From NCBI GenBank assembly GCA_036012755.1, contig DASCPX010000009.1:96001-160000 (forward strand): a DNA stretch of 64,000 bases, written 5' to 3'. Positions within the stretch are counted from its first letter, which is position 1; each line of letters starts with the position of its first letter. The position numbers were made by a program, and so were the translations under genes. The DNA is from Myxococcota bacterium. Its GTDB lineage: Bacteria; Myxococcota_A; UBA796; CAJQPC01. Below the pieces are notes generated by a model. That model made no database searches and was not told the origin of the DNA. It saw nothing but the letters and a program-made list of their open reading frames with translations. This document shows positions 1,861-6,495 of this stretch, one piece after another.

Positions 1861-2916
1861 CTAACGCACCCTGATGACTCCCGTCAGCGCCACACCTGTC
1901 GCGAGGGCCGTGAAGTCCGGGTCGGTCGGCCAGAACCGGGCGTAGTAGAGACCCTGCTGTCCTTCGTACACGAGCTCGTCACTGCCGGAGGCGACGACCT
2001 CGCCGGGTATGCGGACCAGCTGAAGCTCGACGTCCCCCTCTGAGTGGCCCTCGACCAGGAGCTCGGCGGGGCCATCGATGACCCCGCCGGGGCCGGCGCG
2101 CTGCCGCCTGGTCGATGCTTCGATCCGCAAGGAGACGTCGGGCTCTCCAATGACCACGCGGCCGGCGACGAGGGCGTCGATGGGGAGCTCCCCGTCCAGC
2201 ACCCGCACCCATGTCGTCGGCCAGCCCAGGGGCGGGTTCAGGAAGTCGTCGGGAACCGTCCCGCCCCAGCGATGGCAGTCTGAGCCACCGACCGGGACCA
2301 CCCCGTCGGCGGCTCGGGCCTCCCACTCGGAGACGGACTCGGCGTCCCATGGGTCGAAGCGGGCTCCCCCGTTGTAGACCTCCAGCGCGTCGAAGTCCTC
2401 GCTCGTCCAGTCGTACTCGACCCAGGGCGCGGCGGCGTGAGGGTGCTCGACGATCGCCCACCCGCCCTTGGCGACACACTGTTCCACCGCGTCTTTACCG
2501 CTGACCTCACCAGGCGGTCGGTCGATCCACACCTCGAGGTCGACGAAGGCCCCCTCCAACGGCAGGCAGCCGACGTGGCCAGTCGGCCCTCCGTTTCCCT
2601 CCAGGGATGCGATCGGGCTGATCTCGCTCCCTTCGATCACTCCCTCTGGCCAGGCAACACCTGAGATCTCGGGGCCTTGGTTCGGACAGTCCTCGACGTC
2701 CTCGCAGCCCATCGAGCCCTGGGCGTTGGAGTGGTCGGTGATGAAGAGGAAGTCCAGGCCCGCCTCTTCCATGGCCGGCCCGAGGGCTTCGACGGTGCCG
2801 TTGCCGTCCGTGTCGTTGCTCCCGACGCTGCTGTGCACGTGCAGATCCCCGGCGAGCCACACCCCGTCGAGGGGTGGGACAGAACAAGCCGACAACATCG
2901 TGACCATGGACCCCAT
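1861..2916 (-). CDS. PHP-domain (CehA/McbA-like) metallohydrolase, probable lipoprotein
   Basis: GDLHVHS, ITDH, HP and GGSDCH metal-ligand motifs; LSAC lipobox. Confidence 0.82.
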   Translation of the reverse strand: MGSMVTMLSACSVPPLDGVWLAGDLHVHSSVGSNDTDGNGTVEALGPAMEEAGLDFLFITDHSNAQGSMGCEDVEDCPNQGPEISGVAWPEGVIEGSEISPIASLEGNGGPTGHVGCLPLEGAFVDLEVWIDRPPGEVSGKDAVEQCVAKGGWAIVEHPHAAAPWVEYDWTSEDFDALEVYNGGARFDPWDAESVSEWEARAADGVVPVGGSDCHRWGGTVPDDFLNPPLGWPTTWVRVLDGELPIDALVAGRVVIGEPDVSLRIEASTRRQRAGPGGVIDGPAELLVEGHSEGDVELQLVRIPGEVVASGSDELVYEGQQGLYYARFWPTDPDFTALATGVALTGVIRVR

Positions 2917-2952
2917 CGCGTAATGCTACCTTTGCCTCAGTCTGGGAGTCCC

Positions 2953-3612
2953 GTGAAGAGGTTCGTCTTTATTTCGCTGGCCCTTGGAGCGACCGTCGCG
3001 TGCGTCCCCGCACCGCTGGACGTGTCCTTCGACGCGGACGGCGCCGTCGACCTCAACCTGGGCGAGGACCCGGACGAGCAGATCTCCGAGTGGGAGTTCT
3101 ACGATGGCGGCGGCTGGCACAAGGCCGACGGCTGCCAGGACGAGCTCACCGCGACGGGCAACGAGGTGGGCGACGTCACCGCCGACGCCGAGTTCAGCGA
3201 CCAGTTCGGCGACGCCGTACGGCTCTACGACTTCTGCGACCGGGCAGTACTGCTCGTGTCCGGGGCCTTTTGGTGAAGCGCCTGTGTGGCGGAGGCTCCG
3301 TCACTGCAGTCGACCTTCAAGGAGTACGAGGAGGACGGCCTGATCGTCATCCAGATGCTCGCCGAGAACAACAGCAGCTCCACGCCCACGCAAGAGGATC
3401 TGGAGAGCTGGGCCGCGAACTCGGGCCAGACCCATCCGGTCGTCGCTGACGCTGGCTGGGCCGTCAGCAACCGCTTCGAGGTCGACTACGGCATCCCGAC
3501 CTTCTCCCTGCTTGCACCGGGCATGGAGGTCGTGACCGTGGACGACGGGGCATCGGAGAGCGTCATCCCAGACCACCTGCCCTCCGACTTCGAGCTTCCA
3601 GGCCAGGAGTAG
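2953..3612 (+). CDS. Selenocysteine-containing thioredoxin-fold (redoxin/TlpA/AhpC-TSA-like) lipoprotein
   Basis: GTG start after GGGAG; signal MKRFVFISLALGATVAC. The two ORF-track pieces are in frame and join through TGA 3274-3276 as FW-U-SAC-VAEAP. cis-Pro motif YGIPTF; SECIS-like hairpin follows. Confidence 0.88.
3282..3309 (+). promoter_or_regulatory. Putative bacterial SECIS element
   Basis: ctgt-gtggcgga-[ggc]-tccgtcac-t-gcag: 8-bp upper stem (one G-U pair), G-starting apical loop 17 nt after the UGA, and a 4-bp lower stem with a bulged U. Confidence 0.75.
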
Positions 3613-3657
3613 ACACCGGGTCTGACAGCCCTGTGACGTTGCCCCGAGCAGCGTGAG

Positions 3658-3686
3658 ATAGGCTCCCTCGCCGGGAGCCTGTTTTT
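3658..3686 (+). terminator. Intrinsic-terminator-like hairpin that also sequesters the RBS of the next gene
   Basis: ataggctccc-tcgcc-gggagcctgt followed by a T run, ending 1 nt before ATG 3688. Confidence 0.55.
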
Positions 3687-3687
3687 C

Positions 3688-6495
3688 ATGCTGCAGCTGC
3701 TTTTCCTTGGGTCCGCGCTGGCAGCGGAAGCCGAGCTCATGCCGATGGGACCGCTGATCGCCGACGGCATCACGCCAGCCCGCATCCAGGTGTCCGTGCC
3801 GGGGGCGATGCCCGGAGACAAGGTGAAGCTCAAGCCCTTCGAGGGCACGGCGAGCGGTGGCGCCGTCACAGCCCCCGGGGTCGTCAGCTTCAGCTTCCTC
3901 GCCCCGCGGCGCTACGAAGAGGACGGCTCGAAGGTCCGCGTCATCATCAAGGGCGCCGTCAGCGTCGACCAGACCTTCACCATTCCCCTGGAGCCACCGG
4001 CGAAGTCCGAGCTCGAGCTGTCGTTTACGCCGGAGTCATGGACCGTCGGAGACAAGGGCACCGTCGAGGTCAGCATCGGCGCCACCGGCCAGCATCCCCT
4101 GCCCGCCTCGGCGCGCCCCGTGATGCTGGAGGCGAACATCGGCAAGATCACCGGGCTCAGCGAGGGCGACGACGGCCAGTGGACCGCCACCTGGACGCCC
4201 CCTGCGGTGAAGGTCGCGACCAACGCGCTGTTCACCGCGACGGACCTGTCGTCGCCTGACACGGTCGTCGGCCAGTCCCACTACGCCCTGAAGGTGCAGG
4301 CGCAGCAAGAGGTGAAGGCCGCCAGCGGGAGCCAGAACGTGCTCGTCATCGGGTCGGCGCAGTACGGCCCATCGACCGCCAGCGAGGACGGAAAGGTCGT
4401 CTTCGATGCCCTCCTGGACCCGAGGGTGACCGAGGGCACGCTCCAGTCCGTCGACGAGACCGGCTACCGCAGCGACACGACCGTGCCGCTGGAGCTCGAC
4501 TCGCCGGCCGCAGTCGCCTTCGCACCGCTGCCGAAGATGGTCCCCACCGGCCGCCAGATCGTCGTCCACGTCGCCCTCATGGAGCCAGACGGATCGGCTT
4601 GGAGCAGCGCAGCGCCAAAGATGGAGGGCGCCTCGGAGGCCGAGAGCCTGGGCCGTGGGTGGTTCGCCTTTTCGGCCACGGCCCCCTCCGAGCCCGGGGC
4701 CTGGACCCTCGTCGTCGAGGCGGAGGGAGAGCTCCGGGCCATCCGCAAGCTCACGGTCATCGACGCGGTCCCCGACGTGACGCTCAGCGCCGATCCGGTC
4801 GGCCTCATGCCTGGCAAGAGCGCCTTCTCGGTCACGGCCCACCTCAAGGACGCCGACGGCACCGCTCTCACCAAGCGCAGGCCTGCCTTCGAGGTGGAAG
4901 GGGCCTCGCTCCAGAGCGGGCCAAAGGACAACGGCGACGGCACCTACACGGCCCGGTACTTCGCCCACAAGAGCGCCGACACCGCCAGGGTGAGCGTGCA
5001 CGCCGCTCCGAAGGCGACGGGGCTGGCGGTGGCTCGGCTCTCTCTCTGGCCCATGCAGGGGTCGGTGGCCGCGGACGGCTCGTCCACGACGGAGATCGCC
5101 ATCGTGGCCGAGGACGCCTACGGCATGCCGGTCCCGAACGTCGAGGTCAGCCTGACGACCCCGGTCGGAGACGGTGCGATGAAGCCGACGGCGAAGACGG
5201 ACCGCTACGGCTTCGCCGCGGTCAGCTACCGCACCGGTTCGAGCGTCGGACCCGCGGCGGTCGTGGCAGACGCCAAGGGCATCGTCGGCACGACCGTGCT
5301 CTACCAGCACGCCCCGGGCTCGGATCCGGTCGGCGTGGAGCCCGGAGGATCCGAGACGGACCTGGCACGGGCCCAGGCCTGGCGCTCGGCTCGACCGGCC
5401 ATCCAGGTCGCCAAGATGGGCGCTGATGTCGGTCCGCCGGCCCGGGTCGCGATCACCACGACGCCCTCCTACACGACGCCAGGCGCCGCCATCCTGGTCA
5501 CCGTGCGCGTGCTCGACGAAAACGGCAAGGCCGTGCTCACGTCGAGGCCGAAGGTGAAGGCCACCATCGGCAAGGTCGGCTCGATGACCAACAACGGTGA
5601 CGGCAGCTACAACCTGCCGCTCCAGCTGCCCGCGGGGCAGGACGGCCCCGTGACGCTGACCGCGACCGCCGGGGGGGCGACGGGGAGGCAGGAGCTGCCG
5701 ACGCTGGCCTCGCTCGGGGGCGCGCCGCCACCGACCCAGGACAAGGGAGACAAGGGAAGCGGGAAGAAGGATGACGGGCTCCCGACCGCGGGCAAGAACC
5801 CCAACCGCATGGACCTGCGCAACCAGTCAGCGCGCTTCTACCTGGCCGTCGGCGGCTACAAGTACACGGCCCTTCGGGTGAGGAACGGGGACGAGCCCAG
5901 AATCCCCTCGGAGATCGGCTTCCATCGCAAGGGGACGAGCCCCGTCCCCGGCGCCGGACTGGCCGCCAGCGGCCACCCGAAGGGCAACATGGTCGGCTAC
6001 GACGTGCGCCTCCGCTTCTCCGGGTACACGACGCAGGTCGGCGACGGCCTCTACTACGATGGCCTGCCCTACTTCGTCGGCGCCGTGCGGGCGAAGTTCG
6101 ACCTCGCCAGCGGGCTGGCCGCCTACGGGTCCGCGGGTCTCCACGTCGTCGACGTGCCGATCTACCGCTACAACGACGACCTCGACGACGTCGATCGCCT
6201 CAACAAGATGGTGCCCGGCCTGCGCATCGGCGGCGGCGTGACCTACACCAACCGCTTCGCTCACGCCCAGTTCGAGCTGGCCGAGAGCTTCGGACTCCTG
6301 CCGAAGGTCACGCACACGGGGCTCCTGGTCGAGGGCCGCGTCCCCATCGGCCCGGTGAGCATCGTGGTCTTCGTCGAAGAGGACATCGAGTTCCAGCACA
6401 TGCGCTACTGGGTGGGGACCGGCGACAGCGAGGACCGCGTGCTCATCCGGGGCCGCCAGGCGACGACGCTCTTCGGGGTCGGCGCGGCCTTCTGA
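3688..6495 (+). CDS. Large secreted Ig-like (invasin/Big_1-type) repeat protein with probable C-terminal outer-membrane beta-barrel
   Basis: Signal peptide; DNGDGTYTARY and NNGDGSYNLPL motifs; ADG..T.I...D.YG.PVPNVEV; amphipathic strands at the C-terminus ending in Phe. Confidence 0.7.
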   Translation: MLQLLFLGSALAAEAELMPMGPLIADGITPARIQVSVPGAMPGDKVKLKPFEGTASGGAVTAPGVVSFSFLAPRRYEEDGSKVRVIIKGAVSVDQTFTIPLEPPAKSELELSFTPESWTVGDKGTVEVSIGATGQHPLPASARPVMLEANIGKITGLSEGDDGQWTATWTPPAVKVATNALFTATDLSSPDTVVGQSHYALKVQAQQEVKAASGSQNVLVIGSAQYGPSTASEDGKVVFDALLDPRVTEGTLQSVDETGYRSDTTVPLELDSPAAVAFAPLPKMVPTGRQIVVHVALMEPDGSAWSSAAPKMEGASEAESLGRGWFAFSATAPSEPGAWTLVVEAEGELRAIRKLTVIDAVPDVTLSADPVGLMPGKSAFSVTAHLKDADGTALTKRRPAFEVEGASLQSGPKDNGDGTYTARYFAHKSADTARVSVHAAPKATGLAVARLSLWPMQGSVAADGSSTTEIAIVAEDAYGMPVPNVEVSLTTPVGDGAMKPTAKTDRYGFAAVSYRTGSSVGPAAVVADAKGIVGTTVLYQHAPGSDPVGVEPGGSETDLARAQAWRSARPAIQVAKMGADVGPPARVAITTTPSYTTPGAAILVTVRVLDENGKAVLTSRPKVKATIGKVGSMTNNGDGSYNLPLQLPAGQDGPVTLTATAGGATGRQELPTLASLGGAPPPTQDKGDKGSGKKDDGLPTAGKNPNRMDLRNQSARFYLAVGGYKYTALRVRNGDEPRIPSEIGFHRKGTSPVPGAGLAASGHPKGNMVGYDVRLRFSGYTTQVGDGLYYDGLPYFVGAVRAKFDLASGLAAYGSAGLHVVDVPIYRYNDDLDDVDRLNKMVPGLRIGGGVTYTNRFAHAQFELAESFGLLPKVTHTGLLVEGRVPIGPVSIVVFVEEDIEFQHMRYWVGTGDSEDRVLIRGRQATTLFGVGAAF

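Follow-up and report, generated by a model that had tools for sequence, protein, structure and literature searches.

The closest described counterparts of the gene reported here are the predicted selenoproteins of the 'Prx-like/redoxin' class, which carry a UxxC motif containing selenocysteine (Sec). Among the entries of a 2026 catalogue are UxxC selenoproteins assigned to PF00578, PF08534 and cd02966 (PMC13188914), and the GOS survey article reports 225 'Prx-like 1' and 68 'Prx-like 3' sequences (PMC2398784). In section 5 of the former, the bacterial SECIS is described as a stem of 4-16 bp closed by a loop of 3-9 nt with a G in its first two positions, located 16-37 nt from the UGA and with an energy of at most -7.5 kcal/mol (PMC13188914). 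A precedent for Sec in signal-peptide and lipoprotein families, with database entries cut in two at the UGA, is provided by the exported or lipoprotein selenoproteins SaoX, SaoC and SaoB which, as they are described, differ from the present case in their unrelated folds (ABC substrate-binding proteins) and anaerobic hosts (bioRxiv 10.1101/2022.07.06.499078).

In this work we examined a gene at one end of a 64,000-nucleotide stretch of DNA from a Myxococcota assembly (GCA_036012755.1, contig DASCPX010000009.1), hereafter called the window. The gene belongs to the already catalogued class of predicted 'Prx-like/redoxin' UxxC selenoproteins, with which it has in common Pfam families above cut-off, the UxxC motif, a marine origin, and an in-frame UGA with a downstream SECIS. 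By the published descriptions of that class, it is set apart by its predicted lipoprotein signal, TSP3-type repeat linker and Cys61/Cys95 pair, as well as by its restriction to one class of bacteria and its linkage to an Ig/beta-barrel gene. With the ResA/TlpA/CcmG-DsbE oxidoreductases, such as Bacillus ResA and the pneumococcal lipoprotein Etrx2, the protein shares the fold, the W-C/U-x-x-C motif, a Glu three residues after the resolving Cys, the cis-Pro position and a membrane anchor (predicted here), but Sec replaces the nucleophilic Cys, identity is about 20-24%, scores lie far below the family cut-offs, and the redoxin gene stands outside any cytochrome c maturation locus. The NF041054 (WAxxUGC) and NF053656 (TUGYCR) families are also thioredoxin-fold (seleno)proteins, and the genome contains a NF053656 member elsewhere, but their motif is different and our protein scores 19.7 against a cut-off of 300 for the first and gives no hit with the second. 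Our literature search found no description of the redoxin subfamily, of its partner gene or of Myxococcota selenoproteins; the main texts of PMC13326102 and PMC12013277 contain none of the terms Myxococc, TlpA or Redoxin, and their supplements or BSepDB may list members.

Results

A single reading frame annotated as two proteins

Under translation table 11, the locus yields two open reading frames, one ending at 3276 and the other restarting at GTG 3286, and public protein collections, NCBI nr among them, contain the 107-aa as well as the 108-aa piece. The original prediction held that the two lie in the same frame, with the TGA at the first Cys of a WCxxC motif, and that read-through gives a protein of 219 residues; all three points proved correct. 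Indeed, positions 3268-3285 read ttt tgg TGA agc gcc tgt (F-W-U-S-A-C), and the TGA is residue 108 of 219 when translated as Sec in the frame running from GTG 2953 to TAG 3612 (Table 1). The start at GTG 2953 lines up with those of the homologs in the alignment, and GTG 3286 falls within the SECIS stem described below. A promoter and terminator scan found neither.

The sequencing runs containing this stretch are marine metagenomes. Four runs, all as contigs, were compared: X8 and X9 have no coverage of the codon, and the X12 contig (151 nt), which extends just 15 nt to the left of the TGA and has 2 unplaced differences, was left uncounted. The only run with a contig across the whole gene, X5, has 0 differences and agrees with the predicted TGA instead of TGC or TGT, with the proviso that X5 may be the source data itself.

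Table 1. Position of the redoxin gene, its functional elements and its neighbours in the window.
Feature	Position	Strand	Basis
PHP-like metallophosphoesterase gene, divergent, 36 nt from redoxin start	1861..2916	-	window sequence
Shine-Dalgarno-like GGGAG, 4 nt 5' of the GTG start	2944..2948	+	sequence; putative function
Full gene, Sec-containing TlpA/ResA-like redoxin, predicted lipoprotein, 219 aa	2953..3612	+	GTG start, TAG stop
Putative lipoprotein signal peptide, residues 1-16, with Cys17 as probable lipid acceptor	2953..3003	+	sequence pattern
Acidic low-confidence linker, TSP3-type (PF18884) repeat remnant	3004..3099	+	no PF18884 hit here; repeats in most homologs
Cys61, probable disulfide partner of Cys95	3133..3135	+	co-occurrence; putative bond
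Cys95 of YDFCDR motif	3235..3237	+	alignment
TGA codon for Sec (U108), nucleophile at the N-terminal end of U-S-A-C	3274..3276	+	79 genes: TGA in 58, Cys in 21, no other codon
Bacterial SECIS hairpin; core 8-bp stem 3286-3304, loop GGC 3294-3296	3282..3309	+	folding, recoding test, covariation, consensus
Cys111, resolving cysteine	3283..3285	+	39/39 TGA genes, 16/18 Cys genes
Pro182, thioredoxin-fold cis-proline position (I-P-T)	3496..3498	+	invariant in 36 sequences; 56/57 genes
Strong 20-bp intergenic hairpin, 3' arm over next gene's ATG and T run	3648..3694	+	z -4.73, 0/200 shuffles
Partner gene, 935-aa Cys-free exported protein	3688..6495	+	domain search, structure features, synteny

Conservation of the Sec codon

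The 79 distinct homologous genes that aligned at E<=1e-10, over all loci collected, carry TGA (58) or TGC/TGT (21) at the Sec column and never any other codon; the loci are best hits to a Sec-form query and are related to one another, so that these counts describe a family and not independent trials. As expected from the prediction, the homologs continue beyond the column. The 58 TGA genes come from several families, the flanks are conserved on both sides, and TAA or TAG never takes the place of TGA. This conservation excludes a nonsense mutation or an error as the source of the codon. An absence of recoding, by such a defect or through two small proteins (a lipoprotein stub and the GTG 3286 product), would agree with the two proteins listed by gene callers, with other in-frame TGAs of the assembly that look like errors or decay, and with a hairpin that alone is near chance. 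Against this explanation, which we hold to be extremely improbable, stand the TGA shared across families and the position of the break, which splits one compact domain of the predicted model at the catalytic residue while placing the GTG restart inside the SECIS stem.

Each of the 41 genomes of the order has homologs. When 201 genomes were drawn evenly across the phylum, 32 of the 38 belonging to the window's class matched the redoxin subfamily at E<=1e-30, against 0 of the 163 others; the subfamily is restricted to a single class of probable Myxococcota. On the Sec/Cys tree, built from 49 of the 57 rows after removal of 8 that were long or distant, 5 changes are needed. Several independent origins of Sec were considered and set aside, as the AU test on the same 49/57 rows does not reject a single Sec clade (p 0.126); being compatible with one Sec clade, the data lead us to claim neither repeated gain nor reversion.

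Since the TGA form is the majority in this class, the Cys minority makes up most of what protein searches return, with 4 full-length Cys hits and 1 hit that stops right at the Sec column. A database protein of 152 aa, P0006, has A-A-F-W at its very end, immediately ahead of the Sec column; it lies on a contig of only 932 nt and is probably truncated at the UGA. A single-protein scan of genome contigs gave no match, and the matches of a profile search of 1.84 billion proteins were dominated by TSP3-repeat giants.

Some variants deserve a separate mention. Double-Sec forms were suspected from hits with two TGAs (L144, L146, L157 and both L107 copies) and rejected, each having one TGA in the aligned part; this check left out the G028 hit. 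Two Cys homologs, L034 (W-C-G-S-N) and L035 (W-C-D-E-S), lack the resolving Cys, and their genomes also have a Sec copy adjoining the partner gene. Tandem Sec redoxin duplicates lie upstream of the partner gene in three genomes (L047/L109, L044/L113 and L107), and L044 has two redoxin copies with near-identical domains.

The SECIS hairpin

A hairpin beginning 5 nt after the UGA, with an apical loop 17 nt away and starting with G, had been foreseen, and folding reproduces it: the stem starts at 3282, 5 nt past the UGA, and the GGC loop 17 nt past it. All four points of the bacterial consensus are present, with a 3-nt GGC loop, an 8-bp stem, a distance of 17 nt and an energy of -10.5 kcal/mol. 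Taken alone, the hairpin does not stand out from dinucleotide shuffles (z between -0.06 and -1.75 in five folding windows), and it was therefore tested comparatively. It is more stable than synonymous recodings of the same peptide (p 0.013). Among 2000 Cys codons sampled from the 13,317 of this genome, 2.95% precede an equally stable hairpin and 0.95% one of <=-7.5 kcal/mol with a short GG-starting loop.

Within the family, hairpins were called by a rule asking for a perfect stem, a loop 16-37 nt away and a G within the first two loop positions. A hairpin of <=-7.5 kcal/mol follows the codon in 35/58 TGA genes versus 3/21 Cys genes, and the best hairpin has a GG-starting loop of <=5 nt in 47/58 versus 1/21; under this perfect-stem rule, 23 of the 58 TGA genes miss the -7.5 kcal/mol level and one has no hairpin at all. 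The recoding test gives p<=0.1 for 21/39 TGA genes and 0/18 Cys genes. In 7 genes, 4 of the 8 stem pairs are altered on both sides and 91% of cells are paired, compared to 30-48% in slid controls; these genes were chosen for sharing the window's register and the structure was derived from them, which favours it. The distance between UGA and loop varies over the family, being 29 nt in 21 genes, 21 nt in 8, 17 nt in 7, 24 nt in 6, 20 nt in 5, and other values in the remainder, and 9 register changes are needed on the tree.

Sec machinery of the host

The genome (G000) measures 6.7 Mb and is 96% complete. The host had been expected to carry selABCD, and the four genes are there: selA (497 bits) and selB (291 bits, with winged-helix domains) score above cut-off, as does selD (340 bits), which is of the Sec type with its own in-frame TGA at C-A-G-U-A-A-K, and selC is found as tRNA-Sec(UCA). 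Among the 41 genomes of the order, selA is present in 40, selB in all 41 and tRNA-Sec in 32. As the machinery is found in nearly every genome, the order offers no Sec-negative control lineage. The genome also encodes a haem-copper oxidase subunit I, a DsbD-type protein and several Cys paralogs of the redoxin.

These data bear on the possibility that UGA is decoded as another residue, be it Cys or, under a reassigned code, Trp or Gly. A Cys at this place would make a working enzyme, as in the 21 Cys homologs. Several homologs, in addition to their internal TGA, have a terminal TGA, from which it follows that TGA is an ordinary stop and the code not reassigned; TGA is indeed the terminal stop of many genes, the redoxin homologs included. 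Neither Trp nor Gly is ever aligned with this position, only Cys, and the sole UCA-anticodon tRNA of 55 is tRNA-Sec. Decoding as another residue thus appears extremely remote, and insertion of Sec at the UGA of the window gene is, from these sequence comparisons, nearly certain.

Seven further Sec candidates were seen in G000, at C27:349270(-), C137:129117(-), C228:44707(+), C70:223778(-), C59:151038(+), C198:67949(+) and C70:291416(-). They comprise a redoxin-family paralog (W-U-G-V-C); two proteins in which LVIVD repeats are fused to a redoxin (UxxC); a member of the TUGYCR family that exceeds the NF053656 cut-off; a lipoprotein resembling BCP (S-S-U-T-N-D-G-C); a protein similar to arsenite methyltransferases (W-F-A-U-I-A-G); and SelD. 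Six Sec candidates, counting the window gene, have a thioredoxin fold; the coding-score scan was incomplete (selD was missed in the motif list), so that this number is to be taken as at least six. At C228:44707-45932 (L011, L082), the gene for a Sec LVIVD-redoxin immediately precedes that for the Cys paralog most similar to the window's redoxin. In-frame TGAs also occur at non-Cys positions, in a phosphoesterase-like gene (C75:12806(-)), a serine-hydrolase-fold gene (C182:31465(+)), a sulfatase gene (C160:45340(+)) and a kinase-like gene (C114:12547(-)). Some of them adjoin apparent frameshifts, and they are likely assembly errors or decay; given their presence in the assembly, a lone TGA would prove little.

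Protein anatomy and fold

The N-terminus is signal-like and contains a lipobox T-V-A-C, mostly L-V-A-C in homologs, the Thr at -3 being atypical; Cys17 is conserved in at least 90% of 36 aligned sequences. The acidic, Cys-containing N-terminal extension of the original prediction is present, and its description can be refined: the linker (pLDDT 52-65) is a decayed remnant of TSP3-type repeats, which are found in the linker of most homologs and were lost from the window's clade. Cys61 and Cys95 are both present in 49 of 57 genes and both absent from 8. That they never occur singly suggests a structural disulfide, and the two residues probably pair with each other.

The predicted model reaches a pLDDT of 87 overall and above 94 over the domain. 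Between U108 and Cys111, the dipeptide is S-A, where Sec homologs mostly have G-S and most Cys homologs G-P. Glu114, three residues after the resolving Cys, is present in 35/39 Sec genes and is placed like Glu80 of ResA (from PDB titles), and Pro182 presumably adopts the cis geometry. The top fold matches are ResA-type oxidoreductases (Z 17.6, rmsd 2.0 over 135 residues), about 2 Z units above the BCP/AhpE peroxiredoxins (Z 14.6-15.4). At the sequence level, PF00578 (AhpC-TSA, 40 bits for a cut-off of 26) and PF08534 (Redoxin, 26.9 for 26.6) are recognised, and no NCBIfam family is above its cut-off: NF002854 (ResA) gives 39 of the 170 bits required, NF047696 (TlpA) 23.2 of 230 and NF041202 (StoA) 18.5 of 210.

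These results allow two other functions to be weighed. The protein could be a selenoprotein of the peroxidase kind (Prx/GPx-like), reducing envelope lipid or organic peroxides directly via its selenolate. Sec is an efficient peroxide reductant, AhpC-TSA is the best Pfam hit, the BCP/AhpE structures are not distant in Z, and one homolog has a sub-threshold GSHPx hit. The peroxidatic motif of peroxiredoxins is P-x-x-x-T-x-x-C, however, and no such motif precedes U108, where the residues are V-S-G-A-F-W. The W-U-x-x-C motif with the cis-Pro position is an anatomy of disulfide exchange, the ResA-type structures match better, and the genome has a separate BCP-like Sec candidate; we thus judge a peroxidase unlikely. 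A role as a CcmG/ResA-like apocytochrome c reductase is suggested by ResA being the closest solved structure, yet the ResA and TlpA scores are far under cut-off, and no cytochrome c assembly genes recur near the redoxin family. Moreover, a separate Cys-type TlpA (C137:187000) adjoins the PF01578 cytochrome c assembly genes (C137:188299-190371), which makes a part of the window protein in cytochrome c maturation very unlikely. A periplasmic thiol-disulfide oxidoreductase is, in our estimation, a highly probable identity for the protein.

The partner gene

The gene following the redoxin encodes a protein in which some seven Ig-like (Big_1/Invasin_D3) domains are joined through a flexible linker to a C-terminal beta-strand domain that resembles an outer-membrane barrel and ends in Phe. 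The barrel has no Pfam family and gave feature-level look-alikes only (0.92-0.93), and a fold search with the whole protein returned only generic Ig-chain matches (TM at most 0.18). Homologs are found in 40/41 related genomes, 1-4 per genome, and the partner looks like an undescribed outer-membrane family of the order.

In 23 of the 41 genomes, representing 6 of 7 families, the gene immediately preceding the partner on its strand is a redoxin, and this redoxin carries TGA in 23/23 genomes. At the 21 loci compared, the gap between the partner and its nearest redoxin copy is 70-421 nt, and other neighbours recur in at most 4. The single Cys-form gene beside a partner homolog, L057, adjoins a truncated one. 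In three genomes, the redoxin is at a contig end. The PHP-like gene upstream of the redoxin was not found at the relatives' loci, where an aminotransferase gene is the direct upstream neighbour, and is probably a recent insertion.

This arrangement suggests that the redoxin is the dedicated redox partner of the Ig-repeat/beta-barrel protein, which would scaffold it or pass substrate to it. The recurrent short-range, same-strand adjacency, always with a TGA copy, speaks for it. On the other hand, the partner is devoid of Cys here and its family has no conserved Cys, so that it does not itself serve as a disulfide substrate; the closest sister genus does not keep the pair together; the redoxin is absent upstream in 19 of 20 further partner loci (one had just 157 nt upstream); and many Sec redoxin copies have no such neighbour. 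In the window, moreover, the strong hairpin between the two genes could, from its sequence, be a terminator or a block on partner translation; at three other loci folded, a shorter GC hairpin was found in L020 and none in L045 and L048. We give such a partnership a low probability.

Discussion

Codon conservation, hairpin, host machinery and fold all support the original proposal of a bacterial UxxC selenoprotein of thioredoxin fold. Overall, we consider it highly probable that positions 2953-3612 form a real selenoprotein gene acting in the manner outlined below, for which we draw on the known SelB pathway and on TlpA/ResA chemistry. SelB-GTP-Sec-tRNA would bind the hairpin loop 17 nt downstream of the UGA and insert Sec108. 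The protein would then be exported and receive its lipid at Cys17, with the acidic linker as a periplasmic tether and the Cys61-Cys95 disulfide clamping the N-terminal arm onto the domain. The Sec108 selenolate may attack a disulfide or an oxidised cysteine of an envelope protein, Cys111 would resolve the adduct to form a selenenylsulfide, and the DsbD-type membrane protein of the genome could re-reduce it. At low selenium, the UGA would act as a terminator and leave an inactive stub of 107 residues, with the Cys paralogs as a back-up.

By analogy with known oxidoreductases, the most likely function would be that of a DsbD-fed periplasmic disulfide reductase. The direction of catalysis and the substrate are taken from the fold alone; modelled in this way, the reducing, DsbD-fed direction is favoured, with somewhat better than even chances. 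As a more speculative proposal, to which we attach a low probability, the redoxin and its partner may represent an ancestral envelope module, made of two genes, in one class of marine bacteria that respire oxygen and are probably myxobacteria. A Sec redoxin lipoprotein would be docked on the Ig stalk of a Cys-free beta-barrel and reduce a substrate at or through the outer membrane, as part of a mostly exported selenoproteome in which the coding-region SECIS moved among distances of about 17, 21, 24 and 29 nt without loss of function.

The gene, present in nr as two proteins, allows a systematic annotation error to be corrected. Three features take it beyond a routine case: Sec is the majority form across the class, the SECIS is movable, and the outer-membrane partner gene is conserved. 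The occurrence of the same protein with Sec and Cys twins, and with four hairpin distances, provides a natural series to study the SECIS needs of SelB. Section 10 of a 2026 review holds that aerobes rarely keep selenoproteins (PMC13188914). An oxidase-bearing lineage with Sec machinery in nearly every genome and Sec in exported redoxins adds to the evidence against this view, and the partner gene is a first concrete lead to the function of these proteins.
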